From positions 1 to 54,597 of the forward strand of contig JABDCI010000008.1 of NCBI GenBank assembly GCA_013288215.1: a DNA stretch of 54,597 nt, read 5' to 3'. Shown here one piece after another: positions 6,560-50,934 of this stretch; the first letter of the stretch is position 1, and every line of letters begins with the position of its first letter. A program made the translations under genes and the position numbers. The notes below the pieces were generated by a model. It had not been told where the DNA came from. It did no database searches and worked only from the letters and a program-made list of their open reading frames with translations. The DNA comes from Verrucomicrobiota bacterium. GTDB lineage: Bacteria; Verrucomicrobiota; Verrucomicrobiia; JABWAM01.

Positions 6560-6566
6560 AAATCTT

Positions 6567-8957
6567 ATGCCTGCTGAAACTTCCGATGCAGCGGATTTGT
6601 GGTCTGAAGCGCTGAAGCATTGGCAACTGAAAGACGCCATCTCGACGCGTTCATGTTGCGAGCAAATCCTCGTCGTCGAGAATCGCCACGGCGGCGCCCT
6701 GCACTTGCTCGCACTCATCGCGTATGGCGAAGGCAATCTGCGCGATGCTCTCGAAAAATCGCGCGCGGCGGTTGAGGGAGGACCCCATGTCGCAGTCTTT
6801 CACAACACCCTCGGTGCCGTGCTCCTCGCTTCGGAACAGCCCGACCTGGCCGAAGCGGCGTTTCGCACCGCGATCCAAATCGATCCCAAACATGCCGAGG
6901 CGCATGGCAATCTTGGGAACATGCTCAAGAACAGGCGGCGCTACGTCGACGCCATCGCGCAATATGAAGAGGCGATCTCCATCAAGCCCGAATATCAGGA
7001 AGCATGGCAGCAGCTCGGCCTCACCTTTTTCTTGGAACGAAAATGGAAGGAAGCGATCCGTTGTCTTCGAAAAGCCTTGGAGCTCAAACCTGATGAGCCG
7101 AGCGTTTTCGCCTTTCTGGGAGCAAGCCTGCGGGAGGATGGCCAGCTCATCGAAGCGGAAACCTGCTTTCGAAAAGAAATTTCCATGCGTCCGACGCCCG
7201 AGGTTCTCCAGGAGCTGGCGCTTGTCCTTCAGCAGCAAAACCGGATGGATGAAGCGATTGGATTTTATCTCGAAGTGCTTCGTCTGTGCCCCAACAACTT
7301 TGGCGCATACAACAATCTCGGACTGGCATTCGCCACAATGGGAAAGCTGGAAGAAGCAGTCCAGGCTTATGAGAAAGCCATCTCACTGAATCCCGATTTC
7401 CCCCCGACTTATTTGAACGTCGGCAATCTTCACAAAAATCAAAATCGTTGGGAGCAGGCCATCTTCTGGTACGAAAAAGCGATCCAACTCAAACCCGATT
7501 ATGCCGAAGCCCACAACAATTTGGGACTGATTTTCCAAGTGCAGGGATATTTATTCAAAGCGATCGCATCCTATGAAACGGCATTGAAGCATGATCCTTC
7601 CTTCCATGGCGCCTCCATGAATCGCAGCAATGCGTTTTTGGATCTTGGAAAAATCCAGGAAGCAATCTCCTCTTTTCGCGCCTTGCTTTCTCTACGCCCG
7701 GATTACCATTCAGTGCACAGCAACCTGCTCTTCACGTTGCATCATCAGCCGAACATCCGGCAGGAAGATATCTTTGAGGAGCATTTGCAATGGGCTCGCC
7801 AGCACGCGCGGCAATTGTCGCCGCGTTACAACAACTACTCGAACTCACGGGAACCCGAACGCCGGTTGCGGATCGGTTATCTCTCGCCCGACTTCTGCGG
7901 CCATGTCGTGGCATTGAATCTTTTACCGATCTTTCAGCATCATGACCGTTCACAATTCGAGATAATCTGTTATTCCAACACGCCGCGGGAAGACATGATC
8001 ACAGACCGGTTGAAGGCGCATGTGGAGCAATGGCGATACATCCGCCACCATGGGGACGAAGCGCTCTGCGAACAAATTCGCGAAGACCAGATCGACATTC
8101 TGATCGAGCTCGCAGGACATACGGCAAACAATCGGCTCCTGGTCACCGCACGACGTCCTGCGCCCATTCAAATAAACTATCTAGGCTACATCCACACGAC
8201 AGGCCTTGCCGAAGTGGACTATCGCCTCACCGACCTGCATGGCGATCCAGAAGGTGTTACCGAACGATTCTACACCGAAAAAATCATTCGGCTGCCGCAA
8301 TCCGCCATCTGCTACGATTCCATCCAGGGCTCTCCCGAAGTTCAGCCTCCTCCCTTCCTTAAAACAGGCCGAATTACGTTCGGATCCTTCAATAATCTCA
8401 CGAAGTTCAACGACCACGTCGCGGAACTTTGGGCCAAAGTGCTGCTCGAAGTCCCGCAATCCATGCTTCTCATGAAAGCACGGCCGCTCCTCGAACCCGA
8501 AGCATGCGCATGGGTTCGCCAACGGTTCGAAAAGTTCGGTGTTTCCCCAGAGCGCATTGAGTTTCTGGGATGGATTTCGTCGAACATGCAGCATCTCGAA
8601 TTGTACCATCGCATCGACATCGCCCTCGATCCGTTTCCTTTCAATGGCGGCATCACCTCCTTTGACGCGCTTTGGATGGGCGTGCCGATCATCACGCTGG
8701 CGGGCAACAGCTTTGCATCACGCATGGGCGTTCGACTCCTGGAGGAGATCGGCCTCTCCGACCTCATCTCCCTCTCGAAGCCAGAATATGTGCGTCTCGC
8801 TACTCAGCTCGCACGTGAACCGGAGCGTCTCCGCTCGCTTCGATCCGCGTTACGGGGCCTTCTCCAACATTCACCGCTCATGAATGGCGCCCAAACGACG
8901 CAAAAAATCGAAGCTGCGCTTCGCCTTGCCTGGAAGACGTGGTGCCAATCAGCGTAA
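6567..8957 (+). CDS. TPR-repeat SPINDLY-like O-GlcNAc/O-fucose transferase (GT41), copy 1
   Basis: Many TPRs (AEAHNNLG), then RLRIGYLSPDF, IDILIELAGHT, RPAPIQINYLGY, TFGSFNN, DIALDPFPFNGGITSFDALWMGVP. Start taken as the ATG just after the SulP stop. Confidence 0.9.
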   Translation: MPAETSDAADLWSEALKHWQLKDAISTRSCCEQILVVENRHGGALHLLALIAYGEGNLRDALEKSRAAVEGGPHVAVFHNTLGAVLLASEQPDLAEAAFRTAIQIDPKHAEAHGNLGNMLKNRRRYVDAIAQYEEAISIKPEYQEAWQQLGLTFFLERKWKEAIRCLRKALELKPDEPSVFAFLGASLREDGQLIEAETCFRKEISMRPTPEVLQELALVLQQQNRMDEAIGFYLEVLRLCPNNFGAYNNLGLAFATMGKLEEAVQAYEKAISLNPDFPPTYLNVGNLHKNQNRWEQAIFWYEKAIQLKPDYAEAHNNLGLIFQVQGYLFKAIASYETALKHDPSFHGASMNRSNAFLDLGKIQEAISSFRALLSLRPDYHSVHSNLLFTLHHQPNIRQEDIFEEHLQWARQHARQLSPRYNNYSNSREPERRLRIGYLSPDFCGHVVALNLLPIFQHHDRSQFEIICYSNTPREDMITDRLKAHVEQWRYIRHHGDEALCEQIREDQIDILIELAGHTANNRLLVTARRPAPIQINYLGYIHTTGLAEVDYRLTDLHGDPEGVTERFYTEKIIRLPQSAICYDSIQGSPEVQPPPFLKTGRITFGSFNNLTKFNDHVAELWAKVLLEVPQSMLLMKARPLLEPEACAWVRQRFEKFGVSPERIEFLGWISSNMQHLELYHRIDIALDPFPFNGGITSFDALWMGVPIITLAGNSFASRMGVRLLEEIGLSDLISLSKPEYVRLATQLAREPERLRSLRSALRGLLQHSPLMNGAQTTQKIEAALRLAWKTWCQSA

Positions 8958-9018: not shown

Positions 9019-9873
9019 GTGACAAGTAGGGATCCTTTCTACTATTGCAATGGCGGATTCGTGCCGGCTGGCAAGGCCGTTTTGAATGTGCGCGACATGG
9101 GCATCATTCGCGGTTTTGGTCTTTTTGAATCTCTTCGAACCTATCATGGCGTGCCATTCCTCCTCAGCGAGCATCTTGATCGATTGCTTGACGCAGCCAA
9201 ACGCATCCAGCTTCGCCTGCCCTTGTCGAAGCATGGCTTTTATCAGATCGTTATGAAGCTGATCCGCAAAAATCAGTTTCCTGACGCGCTGATTCGTATC
9301 ATTGTCACGGGCGGCATCGCCCCCTCCCTCGTTCCGCAGGGGAAGACGTCCGTCATCATCCTCCTCGATCCCTTCCATGCCTTTCCTCCCGCGCAATATG
9401 AAAAAGGAATCGCCTTAAAAACGACGCCCTTCATGCGAATTCATCCCGAGGTGAAATCGACCGTCTACTTCGGCGCTGTTCTTGGTCATCGTGAGGCCCT
9501 GAAAAACGGATTCACCGAAGCGGTCTATGTCGATGAAAAGGGTGCAATCCTCGAAGGAACAACCTACAGCGTCTGCGCGGTGCTTCCCGGTCCAAGGCTG
9601 GTCATTCCCAAGATCCGCGTTCTCCATAGCATCACCGCGGATTGTGTCATCCGAATCGCAAAGAAAAAACGCATCCCCGTGGAGCGTCGATCGATCACCC
9701 GGGCGGTGCGTCAACGCGCGCTGGAAATGTTCATCACCTCAAGCAACCGGGAATTGATTCCTGTTGTGCGTGTCGATCGCCAGCGCATCGGCAAGGGGCG
9801 TCCTGGGATAGTCACGAGAGAATTGCATCGCGCGTACCGTTCGATGGTCATGGCAATCTCCGGCAACTTCTGA
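9019..9873 (+). CDS. PLP-dependent aminotransferase class IV (D-amino-acid/branched-chain aminotransferase or ADC lyase-like)
   Basis: RGFGLFESLR, EHLDRL, catalytic Lys in EVKS, EGTT, EMFITSS. Confidence 0.88.
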   Translation: MTSRDPFYYCNGGFVPAGKAVLNVRDMGIIRGFGLFESLRTYHGVPFLLSEHLDRLLDAAKRIQLRLPLSKHGFYQIVMKLIRKNQFPDALIRIIVTGGIAPSLVPQGKTSVIILLDPFHAFPPAQYEKGIALKTTPFMRIHPEVKSTVYFGAVLGHREALKNGFTEAVYVDEKGAILEGTTYSVCAVLPGPRLVIPKIRVLHSITADCVIRIAKKKRIPVERRSITRAVRQRALEMFITSSNRELIPVVRVDRQRIGKGRPGIVTRELHRAYRSMVMAISGNF

Positions 9874-11978
9874 TGGGTATGGATTCAGCCGCACTGAACG
9901 TGGCTCAAGCCCTTGAAATCGCGCTCGAACACCACCGCAACGACCGGCTGAATGAAGCGGAGAAAATGTACCGCGAAATCCTGCAGGTTCAACCCAAACA
10001 TCCCGATGCCCTTCATCTGCTCGGAGTGATCCGCTATCAGCGTAACGAATACGAGACCGCCATCGATTTTTTTAAGCAAGCTATCGCGGTTAACGCCACC
10101 ATTCCGGACTTCCACCGACATTGCGGTCTGGCATGGCATGGACTTCGGAATTTTGAGCGCGCCATAGAATGCTATCGAAAAGCTCTCAAGCTAAATCCGA
10201 AATATGCCGAGACGCATAACAACCTTGGACACACCTATCGCGATTTGGGAAAACTCGACGAAGCCCGAGCTTGCTATGAAAAAGCCATTCGGTTGAAACC
10301 GGATTCTTATCAGGCCATCAATAATCTCGGAAATATTCATCAGTTTCAGGGGCGGCTTGAAAAAGCGGCGGAGTGCTACCAAAAGGCTCTCCTGATCGAA
10401 CCGAACTTCGCGGAGGGTTACAACAATCTCGGAAACATTCTTCTTTATCAGGGAAAGCCCAATGAAGCGCTGGAGCACTATCAAAAGGCGCTGAAGATCC
10501 ATCCGAACTATCCGGAAGCTCTCCTTAATATCGGGACTCGCTACAAGGACCGTGGCCAGCTTGCCGAAGCCATCCACTATTACAAAAAATCGTTAGAGCT
10601 CCACCCGAGGTTTGTCGGCGCTCACAGTAATCTCGGTGAGATTTTCAAAGAACAGGGACGTCTTCCAGAAGCCATCGAAAGTTTTGAACGCGCCATGGAA
10701 TGCGATCCTTCGTTTCATCAAGCTCATAGCAATCTGCTCTTCGTTCTCGGACATCATCCCGGAGTTCCACCGGAAGCGCTTTTAAAAGAACATATCGGCT
10801 GGGCACGACAACATGCAGACAAGTTCACGACATCCATTCCGCCTCATCGCAATGACGCTCATCCCAACCGTTGTCTTCGCATCGGTTACATTTCCGCCGA
10901 TTTCCGCAAACATGTCGTTGCCAGCAACCTTGAACCCATCCTAGCGGCCCACAACCATCAGGATTTCAAGATTTATTGTTATTCCAATGTTTTAAATCCG
11001 GATGATGTCACTGCGAGCATGCAAAAACTCGCGGATCGCTGGCGTTCCATTGTAGGGATGAGCGATGACAAGGTCGCGGCGCTCATTCGGGAGGACAAGA
11101 TCGACATCCTCATCGAACTCGCCGGCCATACTGCCAACAATCGGCTTCTTGTTTTCGCCCGCAAACCCGCTCCCGTGCAAGTGAGCTACCTCGGATATAC
11201 TGCCACGACAGGGCTTTCGACCATCGACTATCGGCTTACGGATGAATTCGGCGATCCATCTGGAATAACCGAGTGCTTTTACACTGAGAAAATGAAGCGC
11301 GTTCCGGGAAGTGCCATCTGTTATCAACCTCTCACCGAGAGCCCACCCGTTTCCGAATTGCCCGCTCTTGCCAACAACCATGTCACCTTCGGATCATTCA
11401 ATAATCTCACAAAGATCACCCCCGACGTCGTAGCGCTCTGGGCGCAGGTCCTTCAAATCGTGCCAACCGCGAAACTCCTGATGAAAAGCAAGGGATTGAA
11501 CGATGAGATGACACGTCGGATTTTCCTAGCGATGTTCGAACATCACGGGATCGATCCCTCGCGCCTCACGCTGATAGGATGGGAGGCATCTCTTCGCCAG
11601 CACGTGGAAGTTTACCATCGCGTCGACGTGGCACTCGATCCCTTCCCGTTCAATGGCGGCATTACGAGCTTCGAAGCGCTCTGGATGGGCGTCCCTGTTG
11701 TCACGTTGGAGGGAAAGACTTTCGTTTCAAGAATGGGTGTTCGCCTGCTGGAAGGAGTGAAATTCGGGGACCTGATCGCAAAAACTTCGGCCGATTATGT
11801 GCGGATCGCCTCTGAACTGGCGAAGAACCTGTCCCGGTTGCAGCAATTGAGGTTGGAGCTGCGCGACCGGATGCAGCATTCTCCGCTCATGGATGGCGCT
11901 CAGATCACTCGAAATATTGAAATGGTCTACCGCGACATTTGGACTCAATGGTGTGGGAGCCCATCGAGATCGACATAA
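9873..11978 (+). CDS. TPR-repeat SPINDLY-like GT41 glycosyltransferase, copy 2
   Basis: Same architecture and motifs as copy 1 (LRIGYISADF, ELAGHTANNRL, TFGSFNN, LDPFPFNGGITSFEALWMGVP). The ATG overlaps the upstream TGA. Confidence 0.9.
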   Translation: MGMDSAALNVAQALEIALEHHRNDRLNEAEKMYREILQVQPKHPDALHLLGVIRYQRNEYETAIDFFKQAIAVNATIPDFHRHCGLAWHGLRNFERAIECYRKALKLNPKYAETHNNLGHTYRDLGKLDEARACYEKAIRLKPDSYQAINNLGNIHQFQGRLEKAAECYQKALLIEPNFAEGYNNLGNILLYQGKPNEALEHYQKALKIHPNYPEALLNIGTRYKDRGQLAEAIHYYKKSLELHPRFVGAHSNLGEIFKEQGRLPEAIESFERAMECDPSFHQAHSNLLFVLGHHPGVPPEALLKEHIGWARQHADKFTTSIPPHRNDAHPNRCLRIGYISADFRKHVVASNLEPILAAHNHQDFKIYCYSNVLNPDDVTASMQKLADRWRSIVGMSDDKVAALIREDKIDILIELAGHTANNRLLVFARKPAPVQVSYLGYTATTGLSTIDYRLTDEFGDPSGITECFYTEKMKRVPGSAICYQPLTESPPVSELPALANNHVTFGSFNNLTKITPDVVALWAQVLQIVPTAKLLMKSKGLNDEMTRRIFLAMFEHHGIDPSRLTLIGWEASLRQHVEVYHRVDVALDPFPFNGGITSFEALWMGVPVVTLEGKTFVSRMGVRLLEGVKFGDLIAKTSADYVRIASELAKNLSRLQQLRLELRDRMQHSPLMDGAQITRNIEMVYRDIWTQWCGSPSRST

Positions 11979-21273: not shown

Positions 21274-21423
21274 AGATTTTACGCTTGCCGATATGTTTTC
21301 CCATGAAGAAACTTATCGGCATTGCCATTGCGCGCCCCGAGATGGTGCTCGTTGGCCAAGGCTACACCAAGGCCCTTCGAAGTTGATTTTTCCATCGAAC
21401 CTTTCTATGCATGGAACTGTCCG

Positions 21424-23091
21424 ATGCCTGTGAAAAAGCCAGCGCCCACGCGCAAATCTTCAGACTCTGTCGCTCCACAGAACAGATCCACGTCTAGGAA
21501 GAAAGATTTGGCTCCCGCACTTTCCCTTCCTGCTAAACCTGAAACGTTGACTGAAGCCGACCGCATCGCGGCAAAGCAAAGGGATATTTCCGTTTCGGAA
21601 TTTTTCCTTAAAAATCGACACCTCCTTGGCTTTGATAACCCCAAGAAAGCGCTCCTGACCACCATCAAGGAAGCTGTTGACAACAGCCTGGATGCCTGTG
21701 AAGAGGCGCATCTCCTTCCCGAAATCCTGATCGAAGTGAAACAAATTCAAGAGGATCGCTTCATTGTCATTGTGGAGGACAATGGGCCCGGAGTCGTGAA
21801 AGAACAGATTCCAAAAATCTTTGGAAAATTGCTTTATGGATCCAAGTTTCACTCGATGAAGCAGAGCCGGGGGCAGCAGGGCATCGGCATCTCCGCTGCC
21901 GGCATGTATGGTCAGCTCACCACGGGTACGCCCACTAAAATCACCTCGCGCATCTCGTCCAGAAAACCTGCCCACTATTTTGAAATTCACATCGACACCG
22001 CCAAAAACCTGCCGACGATCGTGAAGGATGAAGTTGTCGATTGGAAACCGCCTCATGGAACGCGTGTGGAAATCGAGCTCGAAGGCAAATATCAGAAGGG
22101 CCGTCACTCGGTGGAGGATTACGTCCGGCAAACCGTCATCGCCAATCCCCACGCAACCATCACCTATCTCCTTCCCACAGGAGAAAGAGAAGCATACAAA
22201 GCGGCAAGCCGCCAATTTCCCATCACGCCACGCGAAATCAAACCCCACCCTCACGGCATCGAACTGGGCATTTTGATGAAGATGTTGAAATCGACGACCT
22301 CACGGAGAGTGAAAGCATTTCTGAGCACCGACTTCGCGCGGGTCTCCAGCGCCGTCGCCACGAACATTCTGAAAACGGCCGGCATTTCCGATGCAGCGAG
22401 GCCGAAGGACATCGCTCACAATGAAGCCGACAAACTTTATCGCGCCATCAATGCCACAAAATTGATGAAACCGCCGACAGACTGCCTGTCCCCCATCGGA
22501 GAAAATGCTCTCCTGCAGGGGATCAAAAAAAACGTCGAAGCCGATTTTTACACGGCGATCACCCGACCTCCAGCTGTCTACCGAGGAAATCCATTCCAAA
22601 TCGAAGTCGCCATCGCCTATGGCGGTAAACTTCCCGCAGAGGAGTTCGTGGATCTGATGCGTTTTGCTAATCGCGTGCCCCTCCTTTACCAGCAAAGCGC
22701 TTGCGCGATTTCCAAGAGCGTCCTGCAAACAAGCTGGCGCAACTATGGCATCGATCAATCCAAGGGCGCTCTTCCCTCGGGTCCGATTCTCATGGCGGTT
22801 CACATGGCGAGCGTTTGGGTGCCATTCACTTCCGAATCGAAAGAAGCGGTGGCGTCCTACCCCGAAATCATCCACGAAATCAAACTTGCTTTGCAGGAAT
22901 GCGGGCGCCGGCTGGACGCCTTTATTCGCAAAGGGCGCCGCGAAGCTGAAGCTCGTAGGAAGAAAGACTACATCAAGTCCTATTTGCCTCACATCGGCAT
23001 CGGCCTGCGTGAAATTCTTTCATTCAAAGAAAAGGATGAAAAAAAAATCCTGGATCTGCTCACCGACATCTTGGAAAGGTCCAGAGAATGA
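21424..23091 (+). CDS. top6B: DNA topoisomerase VI subunit B
   Basis: ISVSEFFLKN, GHKL motifs (KEAVDNSLDACEE, EDNGPG, SRGQQGIGISAA, HGTRV), KPHPHG, RFANRVPLLY, VPFTSESKEA. Confidence 0.95.
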   Translation: MPVKKPAPTRKSSDSVAPQNRSTSRKKDLAPALSLPAKPETLTEADRIAAKQRDISVSEFFLKNRHLLGFDNPKKALLTTIKEAVDNSLDACEEAHLLPEILIEVKQIQEDRFIVIVEDNGPGVVKEQIPKIFGKLLYGSKFHSMKQSRGQQGIGISAAGMYGQLTTGTPTKITSRISSRKPAHYFEIHIDTAKNLPTIVKDEVVDWKPPHGTRVEIELEGKYQKGRHSVEDYVRQTVIANPHATITYLLPTGEREAYKAASRQFPITPREIKPHPHGIELGILMKMLKSTTSRRVKAFLSTDFARVSSAVATNILKTAGISDAARPKDIAHNEADKLYRAINATKLMKPPTDCLSPIGENALLQGIKKNVEADFYTAITRPPAVYRGNPFQIEVAIAYGGKLPAEEFVDLMRFANRVPLLYQQSACAISKSVLQTSWRNYGIDQSKGALPSGPILMAVHMASVWVPFTSESKEAVASYPEIIHEIKLALQECGRRLDAFIRKGRREAEARRKKDYIKSYLPHIGIGLREILSFKEKDEKKILDLLTDILERSRE

Positions 23092-23224
23092 ATGTCCTCC
23101 CAAAGATGCGAACACGGGTTATTGAATCAGAGACTGTTTTAACAGCAAATGACGGAAACAGCCCATGAGATGAGTCCTTCTTCGAGGCTCTTTCCCGTCC
23201 CTCCGCACCTTCTTCATAAATTTT

Positions 23225-24316
23225 ATGGACAAGAAAACCGAAAAAATGATCCGCGATACCGCCGATCTTCTCTACCAGACGATCTTGAAGAAGCATGTCC
23301 CGTCACTCGACTTCCCATTGCGTAGCCTTGATAACGTGATATACGACAAGAAAAAGGGCTTCTTCGAAATCGGCGACAAAGTCAAAGAGCGCACGCTCAG
23401 CTACAATACGGTCAAAACATTCGCACAGGTGATGCGCATGATGGCACTTTCCCACGAAATTGTGCGCAAAGACGACATGGCGACAAAACGCGAAGCTTAT
23501 TATGTTTCCAAAAACTGGGGCGAGGCACGCTTTCTCGAACAACCCGAGTCCGACGCGATCATGGATGACATGGAGGCTCATTTCCGAGTCAACCGTGAAC
23601 GACTTGGATTTATTCCGGAGGAAAAAGGCGGCGATGTCGCCGGCAAACTCATCGTCCTGGACAAGGACCCTGACACCGGAAAGAAAATTGAAATCGACTG
23701 CACAAAATTTGGCACCGGTTCTTATTCGATCCCAACAGCCTGCGAAGAACTGGAATTCAAAACCGACGCAAAATTCATCCTGGCCATCGAAACTGCCGGC
23801 ATGTTCCAGCGCCTCGTAAAACATAATTTTTACACCACTGCCAATTGCATCCTGATTTCGCTCGGAGGCGTGCCGACGCGTGCGTGCCGGCGGTTTATCC
23901 GCCGTCTTGCAGATGAGAAAAAACTCACCGTGTACGCGTTCGTCGACGGCGACCCCTATGGGATGACGAACATCTATCGCACCCTTAAAGTCGGTTCGGG
24001 TAATAACGCGCACCTCAACCGTTTTTTTTGCGTGCCTCAGGCGAGCTATCTCGGCGTCACGCCTCAGGACATCATTGACTTCAAGCTCCAGGACGCCACC
24101 CATCCGCTGCAAGAAGTCGATGTGAAGCGCGCCAAGGACGCGCTCAAGAACGATCCATTTATCAAATTCCACAAGCCATGGCGAGACGCGATCGAGCAGA
24201 TGCTGCGGATGGGCGTACGTGTGGAACAACAGGCGTTCGCAAAACATGGGCTCAATCACGTCATCGAAAAATATCTTCCGACAAAACTGAAAAATCCACA
24301 GAAGTTCCTGCCTTGA
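23225..24316 (+). CDS. top6A: DNA topoisomerase VI subunit A (Spo11-like)
   Basis: TKREAYY (catalytic Tyr region), QPESD, AIETAGMF, GVPTRACRRF, TOPRIM DGDPYG, EQQA. Confidence 0.95.
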   Translation: MDKKTEKMIRDTADLLYQTILKKHVPSLDFPLRSLDNVIYDKKKGFFEIGDKVKERTLSYNTVKTFAQVMRMMALSHEIVRKDDMATKREAYYVSKNWGEARFLEQPESDAIMDDMEAHFRVNRERLGFIPEEKGGDVAGKLIVLDKDPDTGKKIEIDCTKFGTGSYSIPTACEELEFKTDAKFILAIETAGMFQRLVKHNFYTTANCILISLGGVPTRACRRFIRRLADEKKLTVYAFVDGDPYGMTNIYRTLKVGSGNNAHLNRFFCVPQASYLGVTPQDIIDFKLQDATHPLQEVDVKRAKDALKNDPFIKFHKPWRDAIEQMLRMGVRVEQQAFAKHGLNHVIEKYLPTKLKNPQKFLP

Positions 24317-27917: not shown

Positions 27918-29171
27918 TCAAGCCTTGAGCTTCACCCATACCAGCAGGCCGGCCATGGCAGCCAACGTCACCGGCACGCCCAAGCGGGCGAAATCACGGA
28001 AGGAAATGTTGATCCCCAGTTCGCGCGCTTGTTGGACGACGATGATGTTGGACACGCTGCCGAGGATGATGAGGCTGCCGCCAAAGCTGTTGGCCAAGGC
28101 CAACACATAGGCCGTCGGCAGATGAGCCACGTTAACCACCTTCACGAGCAGCAGCACCGCAGCGGAGTTATTGACCAGATTGGAAAGCACGGCCGTCACC
28201 AGGGCCAGCATGGAGAGCGATTGGAGGTTCAAGCCTCCGCGCGCGAGCCAGTGCACGGCTTGTTCGCCGCAACCTGTGGCCTGGAAGACGCCGGTTACCA
28301 CGAACAATCCCATAAACAAGACCAGAATGGGCCAGTCCACCAGCCCTAGCAAATCTTCGGTGCGGAATTTCGTGCTAGCGAGATGAATTCCAGCGGCGGT
28401 CAAGGCAATGATTTCCTTGGGCACCGACGAAAAAAAGAACGCAATGACCAATCCCAGGATGACCAAACCTTTTATCGTGTGCGGGCGGTTGAACGGAGTG
28501 GGAGATGGCTTTACGCTGGCCGGCACCGACGCAGTGGACGCGAGATCATAGCGGGACATCGTCCAAATGAGCGCATAAGCACAACTGAGTGCAAACAACA
28601 CCGGCAAGATACACCAAAATGCGTAGCGCCCGAAATCCAGCCCGGCAATCTGGGCAATCATCATATCTTGCGGATTGCCGACCAGTGTGGCGGCCGCACC
28701 GATGTTGCTGGCAATCGCCAACGCGATGAGGAATGGGACGGGATTGAGTTGCCGGCGGAGCAAGGCGGTCGCCACGACCGGCGTGAAGACAAAACAGACA
28801 ATGTCATGGTTCAGAAACGCCGACAACCCCGCTGTCACCAGCATCAGGGTCAGCAAAAACCGCGCGGGATTTTCGAGCTGTGCCGAAATGTTGTTGGCGA
28901 CCTGATCGAAAAAACCAGACAGGCGCAACTGTGCCGACAGGACAAAAAAACCGAACAAGAGAAGGACCGTTGGCCAGTTGATGAAACCGATCACAGTCGT
29001 CGTCGGCAGACCGGAAAAGATCAGGATCGCAATCGCACCCAGCAACGCGATGCCGGTACGGTTCAATTTCAAGCCCGGCACATGACCCAACGCGATGCCG
29101 AAATAGGTGAGCGCGAAAATTGCCAACACCGCCGGCGTTGCGGGAGAAGGGTTGACGGTGGGGACACTCAT
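27918..29171 (-). CDS. ArsB/NhaD (SLC13-like) anion transporter
   Basis: LNRTGIALLGA, SAFLNHD, ASNIGAAATLVGNPQ, SNLVNNSAA, GSVSNIIV. Confidence 0.88.
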   Translation of the reverse strand: MSVPTVNPSPATPAVLAIFALTYFGIALGHVPGLKLNRTGIALLGAIAILIFSGLPTTTVIGFINWPTVLLLFGFFVLSAQLRLSGFFDQVANNISAQLENPARFLLTLMLVTAGLSAFLNHDIVCFVFTPVVATALLRRQLNPVPFLIALAIASNIGAAATLVGNPQDMMIAQIAGLDFGRYAFWCILPVLFALSCAYALIWTMSRYDLASTASVPASVKPSPTPFNRPHTIKGLVILGLVIAFFFSSVPKEIIALTAAGIHLASTKFRTEDLLGLVDWPILVLFMGLFVVTGVFQATGCGEQAVHWLARGGLNLQSLSMLALVTAVLSNLVNNSAAVLLLVKVVNVAHLPTAYVLALANSFGGSLIILGSVSNIIVVQQARELGINISFRDFARLGVPVTLAAMAGLLVWVKLKA

Positions 29172-29413: not shown

Positions 29414-30322
29414 TTATTTACAAAACCAGCCGAGCGACATCCAGTTTTGGAACCAGCGTTGAACGCGTTCTATTTTTTTTCCCATGTCGGCGTTGTTTGG
29501 TGAAAAGGCGGCGGCGCAGGCTGCTTTCAAGGTCACGCCCTTTTTAAGGGCAAGCAGGATGCGGTAGGCTTCCGGCTCGAGGTTTTTGAAATAGATGACA
29601 TGGTTCATCCGATGGACGGCTACAAAGGTTTTTTGAGGCTTTGGGAGGGGCGTTTTTTTGCGTCGCGTCGTTTTTCGCTCCGCATTCATGGCGTTACTTG
29701 CCTCGGAACGAAGAGAGGATTCACGTTTTTTGATGGCGATGAGGAAATCATCAACTGGATATTCAAACTCGAGCAGTTGGAGATAAGGCTGGAGTTTTAA
29801 GCGCAGGCGCGAAGGGTCTTTTCCCTCAAGATCTTCCTTGGTCAGGATAGGGCGAGCTTCACCATCGAATGCCTCGATTTGCGCCCATTCGAACCGGACG
29901 GTGTCGAGCGCCAGCTGGTGGTTGTGGGATGCGGTCCATCGCGATTCCTCGCCCAGGAATGTTTCAAGACGGCTGCCGAGATTGCGCAACGTGAAACTCT
30001 GTGAGGGATAACGCTCGATATAGCTCTCGGCCAGCTTCATGAATTTGCGCTCTCCAATGACCGCGCGCAGACCTGGAAAATCCTCGTAAAAACAATCGAG
30101 AAGGCGGAACCAATATTGCCGGTTGTAGATCTCGAGCCGCTCGAATGACGTGAGCCGGTCATTCGGTTTGATGAAGGTTGCCGCGACGTCGGAAGTCCGT
30201 CGTCCATCCTTCCAACGGAGTTGCATCCGGTTTTGCGGTGTCAGCGGATGCATGATCGCTCCGGCCATCAGCCGCTGGAGGTCTCTCAATTGTGATAGGG
30301 TGCTTGCATCAGGTCGCGACAT
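29414..30322 (-). CDS. DUF2063 (BufC/HvfC-like) MNIO partner protein
   Basis: ERLEIYNRQYWFRLLDCFYEDFPGLRAVIG, YIERYPS, RFEWAQIEAFDG, WMSLGWF. Overlaps the end of the DUF692 gene. Confidence 0.85.
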   Translation of the reverse strand: MSRPDASTLSQLRDLQRLMAGAIMHPLTPQNRMQLRWKDGRRTSDVAATFIKPNDRLTSFERLEIYNRQYWFRLLDCFYEDFPGLRAVIGERKFMKLAESYIERYPSQSFTLRNLGSRLETFLGEESRWTASHNHQLALDTVRFEWAQIEAFDGEARPILTKEDLEGKDPSRLRLKLQPYLQLLEFEYPVDDFLIAIKKRESSLRSEASNAMNAERKTTRRKKTPLPKPQKTFVAVHRMNHVIYFKNLEPEAYRILLALKKGVTLKAACAAAFSPNNADMGKKIERVQRWFQNWMSLGWFCK

Positions 30323-31163
30323 ATTCGTGATGGAGTGTCTTTCGAAATTGGTTGGCTTTGAGGGCTTCACGGTGGACCTCCTGGAATGAAGGGATGCGGT
30401 CGTCCCATTCCAGAAGCGTGGCGGTGTCACCCACCAGACGGACAGCATGCGCGTAAAGTTTCCACACGTTGTTCAGCACGGGATGATCATGGGTGTCGAG
30501 GATGTATTTTTCGTACTTCGAATGGCCAGCGATATGGATTTGCGCCACGCGATTGTGAGGGACGCTGTCAAGATAGTCGTAGGGATTGAAGGAATGGTTT
30601 TTTGAGGATACGTAAATATTGTTCACGTCGAGCAAAATGCCGCAATCCGCCAGTTCGACCACCTCGGAAAGAAACTCCCACTCGGTCATCTCCGAGGCAT
30701 GGAATTCCGCGTAACTGCTCACATTTTCCACAGCGATGGGAACTTCGAGAAAATCGCGCGTCTCTCGGATCTTTTGGGCGGTGAAGCGCGCCGCCGCGAA
30801 CGTATACGGCATGGGCAGCAGATCGTGGGTATAGGTGCCATCCACGCTTCCCCAGCACAGATGGTCGGAAAGCCAGGGGGTCTGTGTGCGCTTGACGAGG
30901 GTTTTCAGACGTTTCAGATGCATGCGGTTCAGGGGTTCAGCGGAACCGAAATACATCGAAACCCCATGCTGGACCACACGGTATTGTTCTAGGATGCGTT
31001 CGAGGATTTGAAGAGGCCTTCCTCCATCGACCATGAAGTTCTCGGAGATGATTTCAAACCAGTCGACTGCAGGCTTGCGTGTCAAAATGTGGTCGTAATG
31101 GGGGATGCGCAGGCCAATGCCCACTCCAAGATTGGTGAAACCGTTGAATCGGTTTGCCGGCAT
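30309..31163 (-). CDS. DUF692 multinuclear non-heme iron oxidative enzyme (MNIO)
   Basis: GIGLR, FEIISENF, HGVS, WLSDHLCW, HDLLP, AVENVSSY, LLDVNNIY, HIAGH, DTHD, LLEWD. Confidence 0.95.
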   Translation of the reverse strand: MPANRFNGFTNLGVGIGLRIPHYDHILTRKPAVDWFEIISENFMVDGGRPLQILERILEQYRVVQHGVSMYFGSAEPLNRMHLKRLKTLVKRTQTPWLSDHLCWGSVDGTYTHDLLPMPYTFAAARFTAQKIRETRDFLEVPIAVENVSSYAEFHASEMTEWEFLSEVVELADCGILLDVNNIYVSSKNHSFNPYDYLDSVPHNRVAQIHIAGHSKYEKYILDTHDHPVLNNVWKLYAHAVRLVGDTATLLEWDDRIPSFQEVHREALKANQFRKTLHHEYVAT

Positions 31164-31223
31164 GGGGGAAGGTTCCACCAGGGACCGGAAGTCAATCCGA
31201 TCCCTGGAGAATGATCCGGAATT

Positions 31224-31529
31224 TTACTTTTCGCTCTGGGTTTTGCAACCACCCTTGCCTTTGCAGGTGTTTTTGCCTTTGCAACCGTTGTCTCCGGCTT
31301 TGCAGCCACCCTGGCCCTTGCAATCGTTCTGGCCCTTGCAATCATGTTTTCCCTTGCATCCATCTTTGCCGCTGCACCCGTCTTTGCCGCTGCATCCCAT
31401 TTTTTCGACGCTCAGAGACGAGATGCCAGCCTTGCCGCTGTCCAATGTGCCAGCATAGGCGGAAGTTGTGCCGGCAATCAAACCGGCGATGGCTGCGCTT
31501 GCGATCAGTGCTTTCGTTTTTTTGTTCAT
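31224..31529 (-). CDS. Secreted Cys-rich MNIO precursor peptide (bufferin-like RiPP precursor)
   Basis: Sec signal (MNKKTKALIASAAIAGLIAGTTSAYA), then 9 Cys in CxGxxx repeats. First gene of the DUF692-DUF2063 operon, with SD AGGAA upstream. Confidence 0.88.
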   Translation of the reverse strand: MNKKTKALIASAAIAGLIAGTTSAYAGTLDSGKAGISSLSVEKMGCSGKDGCSGKDGCKGKHDCKGQNDCKGQGGCKAGDNGCKGKNTCKGKGGCKTQSEK

Positions 31530-31910
31530 GAGTTCCTGGTTTCTTCTTTAGTTGGATTTGGGTCCGACCGTTTTTCCTAAGAGCATCTACCGTCACGAAC
31601 ACGATCAAAAAAGTCAATGTCTCTCATTTGTCTGAAAGCAGGATGCATTGGGATTGGGAGCTACGAATTCCTTGCAAGGAATTGCTATGTCCTTCTGCGT
31701 TTGCGCAAACCAGAAGTTGCGGAAGACCTTGTTTAAGAAATTTTACTTTAATGATCATCCCGCAATCACTCATGCACGGCATGACGGCTTGGGCTACTTT
31801 GGGATGGCGAGCGGCCACTCCGTTGCAGCCTGGGTGCTTAGCATAGATTGACCGAGTTCAAAGGCCAAGGCCCTGCCTGCTATTGTAGATGACGATCTTC
31901 TTGGATGGGG

Positions 31911-32049: not shown

Positions 32050-32529
32050 ATGCCTTTTCTCAGTGATGATAATCTTATCAATTGGCATACTAAAGGGTTG
32101 GCATGGACTTTGATTCTGGGATGCCTGGTAGGAGTTGGCTGTGGGAGAAATCCCACTCAGAATGTGCGTAGTTGGGTTCGTGAAACCAACATTGTGGTGG
32201 TTGGCCAAATCTATACTTATCGATTAAAACTGCCTTCGGAAACGAAGGGTGCTCGGTATTTCTGGGATGCCAATCTTGCCATCGATAATGTTCTCCAAGG
32301 CGACCTCCCTATGAATACGCTGCATGTGAACTGGGATGAAGCCGAATGGGAAAATATTCCAGAATATGATCTTGGCAATAAAGGGATTTGGTTTTTAAGT
32401 CTCAAAGTAAGATCTCGTGAAGAAAAAACCTATGTGGTATTGGCCTATCTTCCGATAAGTTATCTTCCCGAAGTTAAAAAGTATGTCAGCATAACTCCGC
32501 CTGACGCCCTGGTTCGTCGTCTCCATTAG
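32050..32529 (+). CDS. Hypothetical protein, possible lipoprotein
   Basis: Hydrophobic stretch ending in the lipobox-like LVGVGC. The true start may lie downstream. Confidence 0.55.
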   Translation: MPFLSDDNLINWHTKGLAWTLILGCLVGVGCGRNPTQNVRSWVRETNIVVVGQIYTYRLKLPSETKGARYFWDANLAIDNVLQGDLPMNTLHVNWDEAEWENIPEYDLGNKGIWFLSLKVRSREEKTYVVLAYLPISYLPEVKKYVSITPPDALVRRLH

Positions 32530-33604: not shown

Positions 33605-34375
33605 TCACCTCACTTGACGGAGGTGCCTCCCTGCTCGTTGGGGTAAAGCGAAAAGACACACGAGAATGAACGCTGCGATCGCTGCCGAAGCGAGTGGGCG
33701 GCTCATATTAAGGCCGCCGTGGTCCACCGGCTTATCGAGGAAATCGCCGACAGTAGCACCGAGGGGTCTTGTAAGGATGAAGGCCGCCCAAAATAGCAGG
33801 ACGGGGGAAATTTTCGTCCAGAAATAAAGAGCCGCAATCACCGCCAGGCCAGCGGCAAAAACAAACGCGCCGCGCTCGTAGCCGAGTCCTCCGGTATCGG
33901 CCATCCAGTCACCCAGCGCGGTGCCAAGAGTCTGCGAGAAGGTAATGGCCGCCCAGTAAAAGCCTTCCACTTTCGGGGTAGTGACGCTGTTCACCGAAAT
34001 GGTTCTCTCCGACCAATACCAAAGGCCCAGAACGGCCATCAGGCAGACAAATAAAAGTGTCGAGCCACCCGTATAACCGAGGCCGAGAGACCGGTCGGCA
34101 AGATCAGCCATCGTTGTTCCAAAGGTGGTAGAGGCAACGATGGTCGCCCAATAAAGAAAAGGATGGAATTTCTTTGCCAAGATCTGAGCGATCACAAACA
34201 CGATAAGCAGCCCCAGGAAGAGCGCCGTGCCGACAAAATAACCCCAGTTAAGCGTCATCGTGATAGAATCGCCGCCGGTTTCGCCCAGTGTCGTTGCGGC
34301 GATCTTGATGACCCAGAACGCAAGGGTAACTTCCGGGACCTTGCTCAGTGTTTCCTGTTTGTCTGCTCTATCCAT
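33605..34375 (-). CDS. COG4705 / DUF347 repeat membrane protein
   Basis: SKVPEVTLAFWVIKIAATTLGETGGD, SQTLGTALGD, FILTRPLGATVGD. Confidence 0.9.
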   Translation of the reverse strand: MDRADKQETLSKVPEVTLAFWVIKIAATTLGETGGDSITMTLNWGYFVGTALFLGLLIVFVIAQILAKKFHPFLYWATIVASTTFGTTMADLADRSLGLGYTGGSTLLFVCLMAVLGLWYWSERTISVNSVTTPKVEGFYWAAITFSQTLGTALGDWMADTGGLGYERGAFVFAAGLAVIAALYFWTKISPVLLFWAAFILTRPLGATVGDFLDKPVDHGGLNMSRPLASAAIAAFILVCLFALPQRAGRHLRQVR

Positions 34376-34565
34376 GATGTTGTGTCTTGTCCTCTTGTGT
34401 CCAGATCGACAGCGTAGCTGATGGCGTGAAGATAATCGAACCCTCAATCTGACGCCAGTCACGTTTTGAGAGGGGCAATTGGTCCTGTCCGTGTAGCCCA
34501 ACTTTAAGGCAAGTCGTTCTTGTACGATGGGTACAAGAATTCGCGTTGGGCTGCTTCAATTTTAT

Positions 34566-42007: not shown

Positions 42008-43138
42008 CTACCGGCCCAAAAAAGGCGGACCGCCCTCATGCGTCGACGTAATGGATTGGGCCACTTCGGGATGGTCCTTTGTGATAGCGAGCAGCCGCTC
42101 TGTTGCCGCTTTCGTGGGCACACGCTTCCCCATGGAGCGAAGGACCGCCCGGTAGCAATCCGCAGCTGTGGCGTATTGATCGGCTTTCTCGAGATTTTGA
42201 CCTGCGACGAAGGCACTGATGCCTGCGAATTCCGAATCCGCATATCCTAACACGATCCCATAATTCCCGGCGTAGCCTCGCGCTACACCCAGAGCCTTAA
42301 GGTACTCGAGCGTCTTTGCCCATTCACCCCGCTCGGCCGCGGCATCGGCCAACCCTTCGAGCTTTGCGACGACGGTTTCGCCCTTAGCGGTCGAAAACTC
42401 TGGCAGATCAAATCGCGTCACCAGACTCGTCGCAAGGATCTGCTCTCGAATCGGCGCAAGTTTGTCCTGCCATGGGCTAGAAGAGATGGCACCGCGGAAA
42501 AGCGTGACGCTGGATGGATCTCCAGCGCGCATCGCTACTTCCATAGAGTTTAACTCTGCGACAAGATTGAAGATCGATTGTTGGGAAGATCCCAAAGATG
42601 AAACAACTCGGCTAAGACGCTCGATCTTCATACGTGCATCCGTGATATCGGAGGGCGACTTGATCGAGGCCACAATCTGGTCAACCTGTTTGATGATTGG
42701 GTCGTCGATCTCCTCGTTGGAAACCAATTTCTGCAACAAAGCCTGCCGTTTCGTTTTTACCAGGTCCGCCGGGAGCCAGGACAGATCCTGATTGAAGGAG
42801 TCACGCTCCATTTCCTGCAACCGTTGCAGCGCTGCTGAAACAGAACCCTGCTCCTCTAGCACCAATATTTGGGACCAGCGCTGAGCGGTTCTGCGAAAGG
42901 CTTGGATGCGCTCGTTCTGAAGGTTCTGGTTTTCGGCGTTCCCTTTTCTGAGTTCGGACATGAGGCCATTGAGGGCGTCGGTGGCTTCACGAACCTCGGC
43001 GCTGGTGTGTGCGGACGCGATCTTCTGTCCGAGATCTTTGAGGCGCTGCTCCGGATCATCCTTCTTTTCGATTTCCTGGGCCGACACGGTCAACGCACAG
43101 AGCAACACCAGTGCAAACAGGAAACGAGGAATCTTCAT
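42008..43138 (-). CDS. Hypothetical secreted alpha-helical protein
   Basis: Signal peptide MKIPRFLFALVLLCALTVSAQ and a long open frame. No family recognised. Confidence 0.7.
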   Translation of the reverse strand: MKIPRFLFALVLLCALTVSAQEIEKKDDPEQRLKDLGQKIASAHTSAEVREATDALNGLMSELRKGNAENQNLQNERIQAFRRTAQRWSQILVLEEQGSVSAALQRLQEMERDSFNQDLSWLPADLVKTKRQALLQKLVSNEEIDDPIIKQVDQIVASIKSPSDITDARMKIERLSRVVSSLGSSQQSIFNLVAELNSMEVAMRAGDPSSVTLFRGAISSSPWQDKLAPIREQILATSLVTRFDLPEFSTAKGETVVAKLEGLADAAAERGEWAKTLEYLKALGVARGYAGNYGIVLGYADSEFAGISAFVAGQNLEKADQYATAADCYRAVLRSMGKRVPTKAATERLLAITKDHPEVAQSITSTHEGGPPFLGR

Positions 43139-43147
43139 AGGCGAGAT

Positions 43148-43190
43148 CATTCCTCCCACTCTTTGCTGCGGTCAAGGTCAAAGCCAAAAG
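43148..43190. repeat. ~43-bp dispersed repeat type 2, copy 2; promoter-like for the 42008-43138 gene
   Basis: See 31911-31953. The minus strand reads TTGACCTTGACC...AATGAT, 7 nt before the ATG. Confidence 0.7.
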
Positions 43191-48111: not shown

Positions 48112-50319
48112 ATGCCGTATAACCGTATTTTACCATCATGTATTTTTTTATTTGGTTTTAGCCTTTTATTTTTTTCACAAAGGAGTGTTGCCCAAACAAC
48201 CCAGAAACCGGCTGATGTTCCAGCCGATCCAGCTTCGGAAGAATTAAAAAAACCGATTCTTGAATCGGATTCAGATGCGACCCGCCTCAACACCATTGTT
48301 GTCGTGGGGAAATTAAATGAAGCCCGAAGCCACATTGCGCCGTCGTTGGGAGCCACTGTCTATAGCGTCAACTCCAATGACATTCTCTCCCAATCTCAAG
48401 GAGACAACGCTCCTCTCAATCATGTTCTTCTGCGGCTGCCCGGAGTCAGCCAAGATTCCGCAGCTTCGGGACTCATGCACGTTCGGGACGAACACGCCAA
48501 CGTTCAATATCGGATTAATGATGTGCTGATTCCAGAAGGCATCACGGGTTTCAGCACGGAACTGGACTCCCGTCTCATTGATAAAATGGACCTCATTACA
48601 GGAGCACTGCCTGCACAATATGGCTTTCGCACGGCAGGGATCGTCGACATCCATACCAAGGAGGGAGCTTTCAATGAAGGAGGGGACGCGAGCATGTACG
48701 GAGGGAGTTACGACACGTTACGGCCCAGCTTCGAATATGGCGGTCACCAAGGTAAGCTCAATTATTTTTACTCCGGAAGCTACCTTCAAAACAGTCTCGG
48801 GATAGAGAACCCCACAAGCCAGCCAGACGCCATTCACGATAACAGCAATCAATATCGAGGATTTAGTTATCTTTCTTATCTGATCGACGACACCAGTCGC
48901 GTCAGCCTGATTTTGAGCGGCGCCTATAATCACTTTCAGATTCCAAACAACCCTGGGCAAACAGAAGGAGCGGATCCAGCGGGAAATACGCTGGTGATCA
49001 ATGGTGTCCCTTCGTTCGATTCGAGTCAGCTCGACGAAAGGCAAAATGAACAAAATTATTATGCAGTTTTGGCATACCAGAAATCAGTCGGTGATCTTGA
49101 TTTCCAGGCCTCTCTGTTTTCCCACTATAGCGATGTTCTGTTTATGCCTGATGTGAATGGGGACTTATTTTTCAATGGGCTGGCAGGGAGGACCGAACGG
49201 AGTCTTCTTTCCAATGGAGCGCAACTTGATTCAAGCTATAAGCTGACCGAAAGCCATACTCTTCGGGGCGGCATTCTCTTGGATGCCGAGAACTCTCATG
49301 AACGAGACACCACGTGGGTGTTTCAGACGGACGCTGCCGGCGATCAAACGGGTTTCAATCCATTTAAAATTGAAGACTCCAGTTCTCATTCCGCTTATTT
49401 TTACGGGTTCTATCTTCAGGACGAATGGAAAATCACAGAGGCTTGGACCGTCAATGCTGGAGGCCGTCTGGATCTCTATCAAGGCATCGTTTCCCAAAGC
49501 CAGCTGAGTCCGCGGCTCAATAGCACCTATGAAATCGATAAAAACACGGCGATTCACGCCGGTTACGCCCGCTATTTTACACCCCCCCCGCTGGAAGCTG
49601 TTTCGGCAGGGAGCGTGCAAAAATTTGCCAACACCACCGGTGCTCCTGCTGGGACATTTCAAGATGATCCCGTCGTCTCCGAGCGAGCGCATTACTTTGA
49701 TGCAGGAATCTCTCACAAATTCCTTCCCGAATTTCAAACTGGGATTGATGCCTTCTATAAGACAGCTCGCAATCAGCTTGATGACGGCCAATTTGGGACA
49801 GCTCCAATCTTGACGGCCTTCAACTACCGGACTGGCGAGATTTATGGAAGTGAGGTTTCGGCGAACTATAGCAAGGACAAGTTCCAGGCTTTCGCCAACT
49901 TTGCATGGGATCATGCGACAGGCAGAGACATCAGTTCCGCTCAGTTTCGATTTGCTCAGGATGAACTTGATTTTATCCGAAGCAATGATGTGCATCTAGA
50001 TCACGACCAACGTTTCACGGGTTCATTTGGAACGTCTTATCAACTGAATGAAACCCGCCCCTATGCGGATTTGATTTATGGCAGTGGTCTGCGAAACGGT
50101 TTTGCGAATACTGGCCATCTTCCCGATTACAACACTCTTAACGTGGGTGTAGAACAGGGGTTCAAGTGGGCAGAACTCAAAAACCTCAAACTACGCTTTG
50201 ATATTATCAATGTTTGCGACAATATTTATGAACTTCGGGACGGCACTGGAATTGGAGTGGGAGCACCTCAATTTGGAGCTCGTAGAAGTTTTTATGGCGG
50301 CCTCACTTATTCGTTTTGA
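48112..50319 (+). CDS. TonB-dependent outer membrane receptor
   Basis: Signal peptide, TonB box TIVVVG, plug (LPGVSQDS, GALPAQYG), C-terminal YGGLTYSF. Confidence 0.92.
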   Translation: MPYNRILPSCIFLFGFSLLFFSQRSVAQTTQKPADVPADPASEELKKPILESDSDATRLNTIVVVGKLNEARSHIAPSLGATVYSVNSNDILSQSQGDNAPLNHVLLRLPGVSQDSAASGLMHVRDEHANVQYRINDVLIPEGITGFSTELDSRLIDKMDLITGALPAQYGFRTAGIVDIHTKEGAFNEGGDASMYGGSYDTLRPSFEYGGHQGKLNYFYSGSYLQNSLGIENPTSQPDAIHDNSNQYRGFSYLSYLIDDTSRVSLILSGAYNHFQIPNNPGQTEGADPAGNTLVINGVPSFDSSQLDERQNEQNYYAVLAYQKSVGDLDFQASLFSHYSDVLFMPDVNGDLFFNGLAGRTERSLLSNGAQLDSSYKLTESHTLRGGILLDAENSHERDTTWVFQTDAAGDQTGFNPFKIEDSSSHSAYFYGFYLQDEWKITEAWTVNAGGRLDLYQGIVSQSQLSPRLNSTYEIDKNTAIHAGYARYFTPPPLEAVSAGSVQKFANTTGAPAGTFQDDPVVSERAHYFDAGISHKFLPEFQTGIDAFYKTARNQLDDGQFGTAPILTAFNYRTGEIYGSEVSANYSKDKFQAFANFAWDHATGRDISSAQFRFAQDELDFIRSNDVHLDHDQRFTGSFGTSYQLNETRPYADLIYGSGLRNGFANTGHLPDYNTLNVGVEQGFKWAELKNLKLRFDIINVCDNIYELRDGTGIGVGAPQFGARRSFYGGLTYSF

Positions 50320-50331
50320 CAAAGGAACAAC

Positions 50332-50934
50332 ATGTTTCAGCTTTTTTTAAAAGGTGGCCCTATCATGTGGCCAATCCTTGTGCTGTCGATCGTGACGCTG
50401 GGGGTGGTTATTGAGCGGGCCCTTTTTCTTGTTCAGGAAATGCGATGCCAGGACCATGCAACCGTTCATCATATTTTTGAACTTGTCGAACACGGTAAAA
50501 TTGAGGACGCGGCTCAAGCAGGAAAAGGTTCGAAAGACAGGGTGGCGCGTATCCTGATACAGGGTTTGGAGCATCGACATAGCTCCCTCAATGATGCTCT
50601 CTTGGAAGCTTCGAGTCAGGAGTTAGAACGTCACAATCGCGGTCTCGTCACACTGGATACCGCGGTCACATTGGGGCCGCTCCTTGGGCTATTGGGAACC
50701 GTGACGGGCATGATTCGAGCCTTTGGTGTCATTGGAGGAAACGCGATCGCAGACAAGCAGCAAGCGATCACAGGCGGAGTGGCTGAAGCGTTGATTGCAG
50801 TAAGCTTTGGATTGGGTGTGGCGATCCTGGCGATTATCCCACTCAACTTTTTCACAGCCAGGCTTGAGAAGGTGCGCCGCCAACTTGAAGGCGCCATGAA
50901 CCGGCTCACCATTCTCCTGTCGAAAGGAGATTGA
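50332..50934 (+). CDS. exbB: MotA/TolQ/ExbB proton channel
   Basis: GGPIMWPI, GPLLGLLGTVTGMI, GGVAEALIA. Confidence 0.9.
   Translation: MFQLFLKGGPIMWPILVLSIVTLGVVIERALFLVQEMRCQDHATVHHIFELVEHGKIEDAAQAGKGSKDRVARILIQGLEHRHSSLNDALLEASSQELERHNRGLVTLDTAVTLGPLLGLLGTVTGMIRAFGVIGGNAIADKQQAITGGVAEALIAVSFGLGVAILAIIPLNFFTARLEKVRRQLEGAMNRLTILLSKGD

Follow-up and report, generated by a model that had tools for sequence, protein, structure and literature searches.

A bufferin-2-type gene cluster with an extended nine-cysteine precursor in a member of the Verrucomicrobiota

Bufferins and captophorins are peptides made on ribosomes and modified after translation (RiPPs) whose cysteines are altered by multinuclear non-heme iron-dependent oxidases (MNIOs, DUF692) working with partner proteins. 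All characterised clusters that pair an MNIO with a partner of PME type 1 are reported to make 5-thiooxazoles, and the characterised 5-thiooxazole products generally to bind copper (PMC13097082). The closest described system is bufA2B2C2 of Caulobacter vibrioides, whose product, bufferin 2 (Buf2), contains four cysteines each lighter by 4.03 Da and one disulfide (CysI-CysVI), and absorbs near 305 nm; buf1 and buf2 are induced by Cu and not by Fe, Zn or Mn, buf2 has no doxX, and DoxX is dispensable for bufferin 1 (Buf1) (PMC11626156). The Buf2 family at large (BUF_6/12Cys) is defined in PMC12452194, which lists its members after removing redundancy at 90% and gives them 6 or 12 cysteines. Further literature drawn on includes PMC8692599, 10.64898/2026.06.05.730506 and 10.64898/2025.12.15.693703. 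Here we describe a cluster of this kind in positions 1-54,597 of contig JABDCI010000008.1 (assembly GCA_013288215.1), the whole of which we call the window, from a Verrucomicrobiota bacterium (Verrucomicrobiia; JABWAM01) whose assembly measures 1.6 Mb and is 52.6% complete.

The locus comprises three minus-strand open reading frames (ORFs) in the order precursor (31529-31224), MNIO/DUF692 (stop 30309) and DUF2063 partner (stop 29414). The initial annotation had read the operon in this way, and the 101-residue precursor carries exactly the core sequence quoted there. Matters of observation are the genes, their order, the families of the enzyme and its partner, and a precursor core homologous to BufA2; that the three genes make up a verrucomicrobial bufABC cluster of the bufferin-2 family (BUF_6/12Cys, Cys-Lys captophorin) we regard as highly probable. 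A host outside the Proteobacteria had been suspected from the start, and all 11 of the organism-named UvrC homologues (among the best 120) are indeed from Verrucomicrobiota. The features of the locus are as follows.

31224..31529, minus strand: bufA, precursor of 101 residues with 9 Cys, Buf2 / Cys-Lys captophorin type (NF050166 43.9 bits, cutoff 60; 3273 homologues)
31452..31529, minus strand: Sec signal peptide predicted by eye, with AYA as the cleavage site and residues 1-26 removed (A13, G16 and G20 invariant in 32 aligned sequences)
31341..31394, minus strand: variable extension, hexads CSGKDG CSGKDG CKGKHD with Cys46, Cys52 and Cys58 (near-identical DNA of the first two; homologue counts)
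31245..31340, minus strand: compact Buf2 core, Cys64-Cys95, spacing 6,6,7,6,6, two 19-residue three-Cys units (alignments)
30309..31163, minus strand: bufB, MNIO (DUF692) maturase, 284 residues from ATG 31163, with E252-W-D254-D255, a Cys-Lys-type signature (NF050167, PF05114, 3BWW)
29414..30322, minus strand: bufC, DUF2063 plus RRE-like partner of PME type 1, 302 residues (PF09836; structure model; Foldseek)

The longest-ORF starts of the MNIO (31178) and the partner (30448) were replaced by likelier ATG codons: 31163, from which the MNIO homologues align, and 30322, which places the beginning of bufC within the end of bufB (overlap of 14 nt). No second precursor, MNIO or partner was found elsewhere in the 52.6% complete assembly.

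The window MNIO passes the NCBIfam BufB model NF050167 (344.1 bits against a cutoff of 310), matches PF05114 at 352.3 and 3BWW at E 6.7e-48, and lies below every cutoff of the HvfB, ApyH, ChrH and MbnB models. Thirteen positions (R19, E41, H66, H101, E146, D179, N182, H210, H214, D223, H225, E252 and D254) are invariant in all 125 rows of an alignment of non-plasmid MNIOs, the window and three duplicates included; we take these to include the iron ligands and the catalytic base. The enzymes of Cys-Lys clusters are reported to carry Asp in place of FonB Phe250, beside the catalytic Asp249, and to have lost the second N-terminal Arg (PMC13097082). Since the window enzyme reads LLEWDD and GLRIP (R19-I20) where the HvfB-like 3BWW reads LLERDF and GYRRD, with D-D in place of D-F, it appears to bear the Cys-Lys signature (D254-D255, R19-I20), the correspondence to FonB D249/F250 being inferred through 3BWW.

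The partner matches PF09836 (DUF2063) at 53.3, above the cutoff of 27.2, and PF22106 weakly (18.1, cutoff 27). Compared by sequence it has no match in the PDB, and its relatives surfaced by fold search only: the structure model, with a predicted local distance difference test (pLDDT) score of 92.4, has three Foldseek matches at E <= 0.001, namely TglI twice (8hci_A, 8hi7_A) and NGO1945 (3dee), all at E <= 6.5e-5. NGO1945 is the reference protein of PME type 1. As modelled, the partner has the fold of NGO1945 and TglI, and its DUF2063 domain, fused to a domain resembling the RiPP recognition element (RRE), places it in PME type 1.

The precursor begins with a basic N-terminus, ALIASAAIAGLIAG and an AYA cleavage site, with neither a twin Arg nor a lipobox Cys, and its nine cysteines stand at residues 46, 52, 58, 64, 70, 76, 83, 89 and 95 (spacing 6,6,6,6,6,7,6,6), seven of them followed directly by Lys; after two of the three extension cysteines the residue is Ser, not Lys. 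As a check on chance, a six-frame scan of the assembly for at least five cysteines at spacing 6-7 returned the precursor and one unrelated five-Cys stretch. The initial annotation described the peptide as a hexapeptide repeat. Its nine cysteines stand, but a pure hexad repeat is rejected, as three CxGK[DH] hexads are followed by a core with spacing 6,6,7,6,6 built from two 19-residue, three-Cys halves. A homologue search gave 3273 matches among 3421 candidates, and in the best 120 of these 3273 the pattern C-x5-C-x5-C-x6-C-x5-C-x5-C is present in 119 (twice in 19); the conserved unit is therefore one of six cysteines, all of them invariant in an alignment of 32 sequences. One to four further Cys motifs precede the core in 67 of 100 single-core top homologues, and the extension is absent in the other 33, in a tally made by regular expression and biased toward the form of the query. 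At the DNA level the two CSGKDG copies are identical at 16 of 18 nt, consistent with a short stretch having been duplicated recently.

Comparison with canonical Buf2 supports the kinship, which had been proposed as one with the CKG-rich bufferins. Like C. vibrioides bufA2B2C2, the window cluster has the order A-B-C without doxX, a precursor with a predicted Sec signal, spacing 6,6,7,6 with CKG motifs, a BufB-class MNIO and a DUF2063-RRE partner; it differs in its verrucomicrobial host and, from Buf2 as published, in three additional N-terminal Cys hexads, which bring the cysteines to 9 as against the reported 6 or 12. For the peptide itself, canonical BufA2 was represented by plasmid-borne members and not by the C. 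vibrioides sequence. The MNIO matched 507 plasmid records, of which six were fetched; in five of these the peptide encoded upstream passes NF050166 at 88.5-104.4 bits with spacing 6,6,7,6,13, and the sixth has a longer Cys-rich ORF. The first five core cysteines and the CKG motifs are invariant in the alignment with the plasmid BufA2 peptides. The window precursor itself found no match among plasmids. On plasmid NZ_CP022523.1 (locus L109), a long ORF upstream of the MNIO has a CKGSNDCKAQGGC motif in its C-terminal part and is possibly a protein-sized substrate.

Membership of the published Buf2 cluster was judged by proxy, through the accessions of relatives. Of the accessions obtained for ten relatives, six were checked, and four of the six are in the published Buf2 column, namely PTY03863.1 (extended by CSGKDG, with nine mature Cys), MBI3884516.1 (with eight), MBL9145852.1 and MBV9268262.1; their cores match that of the window at 26-30 of 32 residues; the other two are not in the available list, perhaps because of the 90% redundancy removal (PMC12452194). 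The same column holds five of six further accessions, among them the canonical peptide of Sphingomonas (WP_121151840.1) and four from Opitutaceae/Acidobacteriaceae that were picked from the genome table published with the family; since some taxa in the later rows of this table seem to be misassigned, the accession lists were relied upon instead (PMC12452194). Rows of the captophorin Data Set S2 likewise contain core-plus-extension, hexad-only and two-Cys precursors, several of them labelled CK-style (PMC13097082). Accordingly, the suggestion of an uncharacterised subfamily cannot be upheld: the precursor lies inside a known family whose published members include extended forms with 8-9 mature cysteines, and the claim to novelty is lost while the cluster itself stands. 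It is a real, intact-looking cluster of the bufferin-2 type, with its family, chemistry class and sequence type already in print or in published tables. We found no biochemical study of the window's branch in the literature, and the supplementary alignments and logos of PMC11626156, PMC12452194 and PMC13097082 may already show the subtype.

HvfA/oxazolin of the EGKCG family (PMC11252979), an MNIO substrate with repeats and many cysteines that is exported and has several copper sites, is what the window precursor is predicted to resemble, but its E-G-K-C-G motif sets Lys before Cys. Membership was rejected, there being no EGKCG in the window precursor and the scores for NF003818 (HvfB; 250, cutoff 360) and NF050145 (42.8, cutoff 142) being too low. 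Buf1 (DUF2282/BufA1) shares the cluster logic and presumably the 5-thiooxazole chemistry, and differs in having four cysteines in a folded disulfide scaffold; PF10048 (DUF2282) had no match to the window peptide at E <= 0.1, and this membership too was discarded. The Cys-Lys captophorins agree with the window in their pairing of MNIO and PME1 with a Cys-rich precursor containing Cys-Lys motifs, and in the Asp after the catalytic Asp, whereas the captophorins characterised to date in that work (fontiphorin, gonophorin and oxazolin) have Lys-Cys EGKCG repeats, and FonBC left C-K motifs, HNDCK and NACKG among them, unprocessed (PMC13097082). A new RiPP class was considered and rejected.

Several observations weigh against an unqualified transfer of Buf2 structure, chemistry and function to the window. 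The score of the precursor against the BufA2 equivalog model NF050166 is under the cutoff, as are those of published Buf2 members of the window's type (34.8 and 43.3); five proteobacterial Buf2 members and one 12-Cys planctomycete member do pass, and the NCBIfam BufA2 model evidently misses a large part of the published family. Canonical BufA2 has a last spacing of 13, a strand at CysI and a helix at CysVI; in the window core the last spacing is 6, and neither the VHCYG strand nor the loop of 13 residues and the helix that precede CysVI are present, so that it may not adopt the Buf2 fold. Models of the precursor are of low confidence (AlphaFold2 from 32 sequences, pLDDT 46.6; ESM Atlas, 0.26). 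Identity between the MNIO clade and the fetched proteobacterial BufB2-type enzymes is no more than about 46-51%, Asp255 is present in 104 of 125 rows and often replaced by Ala in the remainder, with the FonB mapping passing through 3BWW, and the partner misses the NCBIfam HvfC model NF050145. No doxX was found for the window locus in the 52.6% complete assembly, whereas one follows the cluster in 51 of 64 relatives with enough flank, and the neighbouring genes scanned showed neither a copper transporter nor a copper regulator. Lastly, the ring structure of Buf2 itself was inferred from mass and UV absorbance, while that of Buf1 was fixed by labelling.

A genome scan produced at least 605 pattern matches, at least 575 of them confirmed. 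Most of the 79 loci kept belong to Verrucomicrobiota or Acidobacteriota, and some to Planctomycetota; 70 of them also contain an MNIO and 68 a partner, and six of the nine loci without an MNIO end at a contig edge. When 251 sampled genomes of the host class were searched with the enzyme first, 57 had a match at E <= 1e-50. The peptides encoded upstream in these 57 loci, classified by reading, comprise the core only (29), the core with extra Cys hexads (9), hexads without the core (6), two core cysteines with a poly-Lys tail (11, all one family, f8) and other types (2). In a tree of MNIOs (77 of 128 non-duplicate rows, LG+G4, with SH-aLRT support only and long-branch warnings), the window enzyme sits in a starred four-row clade. 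Its companions there are G004, whose precursor has core and extension, G007, whose precursor has hexads only, and a planctomycete locus with the core alone; proteobacterial BufB2-type enzymes stand well apart. Five changes of the core/no-core label are required on this tree, a count from which gain and loss are indistinguishable. The turnover of precursor cores next to similar enzymes is thus rapid, and a precursor gene can consist of hexads with no core.

Individual precursors illustrate the range. Those of G001 (L089:1501-1797), G007 (L091:974-1273), L150, L090, L139 and L141 have the same signal peptide and no six-Cys core, only 3-9 CxGK[DE]G-like hexads, often with tails rich in Asp, Lys, Glu or His; that of L150 consists of nine near-perfect hexads. 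The minimal precursors of family f8 (L143-L149, L151-L154) contain only CxxC or CKGKQSC and then the poly-Lys tail, four of them also ending in one or two Cys, and the MNIOs beside them are intact with D254-D255 kept. Two loci (L013, L022) have two precursor copies each, and one family of extracytoplasmic function (ECF) sigma factors turns up in 20 of the 79 loci. No tie between residue 255 and the residue after Cys was evident, since enzymes with Ala255 are found next to ordinary Cys-Lys cores and enzymes with Asp255 next to CxxC peptides that have no Cys-Lys.

By analogy with the characterised systems, BufB and BufC probably turn cysteines of BufA into 5-thiooxazoles, and the product is probably a Sec-exported, multi-site periplasmic copper buffer. 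The initial annotation had allowed for oxazolones as well; that option is out of date, oxazolin having been reassigned to 5-thiooxazole, and an oxazolone-thioamide was rejected as the default product. BufB and BufC would form a cytoplasmic complex that binds unfolded BufA, as proposed by analogy with Buf1 and Buf2 (PMC11626156) and fontiphorin (PMC13097082). The multi-iron centre would use O2 for the four-electron oxidation of Cys to 5-thiooxazole, each ring lowering the mass by 4.03 Da; Asp254 would serve as the base, and Asp255 would read the Lys that follows Cys. Sec would then export the peptide and signal peptidase release a product of 75 residues (calculated unmodified monoisotopic mass 7385.34 Da), in which thiooxazole thiols and ring nitrogens would bind Cu(I)/Cu(II) and so buffer excess copper in the periplasm. 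The extra hexads would most likely add modifiable metal-binding sites, their number changing by short duplications.

Because the scaffold for the CysI-CysVI disulfide is missing, seven modifications with one disulfide (-30.2 Da) and nine modifications (-36.3 Da) are both plausible by analogy. A tenable but not favoured alternative keeps the chemistry and confines it to the central core cysteines, giving four rings and the CysI-CysVI disulfide, with the extension cysteines left as thiols or disulfides and the extension itself a neutral product of slippage. It has the Caulobacter Buf2 precedent (PMC11626156), the absence of the extension from 33 of the 100 single-core top homologues and 29 of the 57 class-level loci, and the Ser after two of the three extension cysteines in its favour. 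Set against it are the six of 57 loci in which the precursor gene preceding an intact MNIO has no Cys motifs other than hexads, among them those of the same-genus G001 and of G007, whose enzyme is 83% identical and belongs to the window's own starred clade; moreover, the strand and helix that carry the disulfide of canonical BufA2 are missing in the window. As hexads alone occupy the precursor gene beside similar intact MNIOs, the sequences suggest that the extension cysteines are substrates. The precursors that adjoin closely related enzymes range from 2 to 11 Cys, some having the core and others not, and we tentatively offer a bolder reading, which we think rather unlikely as it stands: the verrucomicrobial/acidobacterial branch would have dropped the disulfide-pinned scaffold, and a processive BufBC would convert any C-[K/S]-G hexad behind the conserved signal-leader, making all nine cysteines thiooxazoles in a flexible, Lys-rich copper sponge whose capacity is tuned by gain and loss of 18-nt hexads. 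If true, this would be a programmable Cys-to-thiooxazole tailoring system and, as far as our literature search showed, the first characterised captophorin outside the Proteobacteria.

The peptide is valuable as a test case: with compact core and extra hexads in one molecule, a single mass spectrometry experiment would reveal which cysteines are modified by a Cys-Lys enzyme and whether this requires the disulfide of Buf2. No chemistry study of its branch was found in our literature search, yet of 251 genomes sampled from the host class 57 have it.

Less probable is that the main job of the peptide is something other than copper defence, such as the binding of another soft metal (Ag, Au, Hg, Zn), copper storage or the buffering of oxidative stress. 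No Cu-homeostasis gene was seen among the neighbours scanned, roles beyond copper have been suggested (PMC12452194), and many-site captophorins aggregate with Cu (PMC13097082); the binding of Cu by characterised 5-thiooxazole products (PMC13097082) and the induction of buf1 and buf2 by Cu and not by Fe, Zn or Mn (PMC11626156) argue the other way. Regulation may also differ. A promoter-like motif, GGAATA-N(15-18, mostly 16)-[C/G]TC, stands upstream of 34 of 114 precursors (L002-L080 and class-level loci) against a shuffle mean of 0.75, a comparison among kin that are not independent; it is found in 24 of 28 named Verrucomicrobiota precursors, 0 of 32 from Acidobacteriota and 10 of 50 class-survey loci (examples are L002, L014, L024 and L140). 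It looks to us like a promoter for an ECF sigma factor. The full motif is absent from the window and its four same-order relatives, the window having only GCTCTTA upstream at about 31578-31584 (minus strand). Promoter and terminator predictions equalled shuffles in number and gave nothing credible for the operon, and the upstream DNA of five same-order loci aligns poorly.

That the peptide works unmodified, as a periplasmic metallothionein-like or disulfide-rich protein, or that the divergent MNIO clade makes a different Cys product, is improbable: the separation of the enzyme clade in the tree and the three of 79 loci with full flanks and no MNIO adjacent to the precursor lend it something, but the catalytic residues are intact, gene order is conserved, the BufB model is passed and every characterised MNIO-PME1 cluster yields 5-thiooxazoles (PMC13097082).

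Beyond the cluster, a CitMHS/ArsB-NhaD-like transporter gene (27918-29171, minus strand; PF03600, 203 bits) lies 243 nt downstream of bufC on the same strand; it was considered as part of the cluster and excluded because none of the ORFs collected from the 79 related loci is homologous to it. Divergent from bufA, an ORF at 32050-32529 (plus strand) has no Pfam match and a lipobox-like LVGVGC stretch, and 33605-34501 (minus strand) encodes a DUF347 repeat membrane protein. The window also holds an ORF with no Pfam match (42008-43159, minus strand) and, at 48112-50934 (plus strand), a TonB-dependent receptor gene followed by an ExbB-like ORF, so named by eye. Adjoining genes for topoisomerase VI subunits B and A, an archaeal-type enzyme here in a bacterium, occupy 21322-24316 (plus strand; PF09239; PF21180, PF20768, PF04406). 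Two genes on the plus strand (6480-8957 and 9642-11978) encode tetratricopeptide repeats with glycosyltransferase-41 (O-GlcNAc transferase-like) domains, and the ORF between them (9019-9873) resembles, in our estimation, a class IV aminotransferase.

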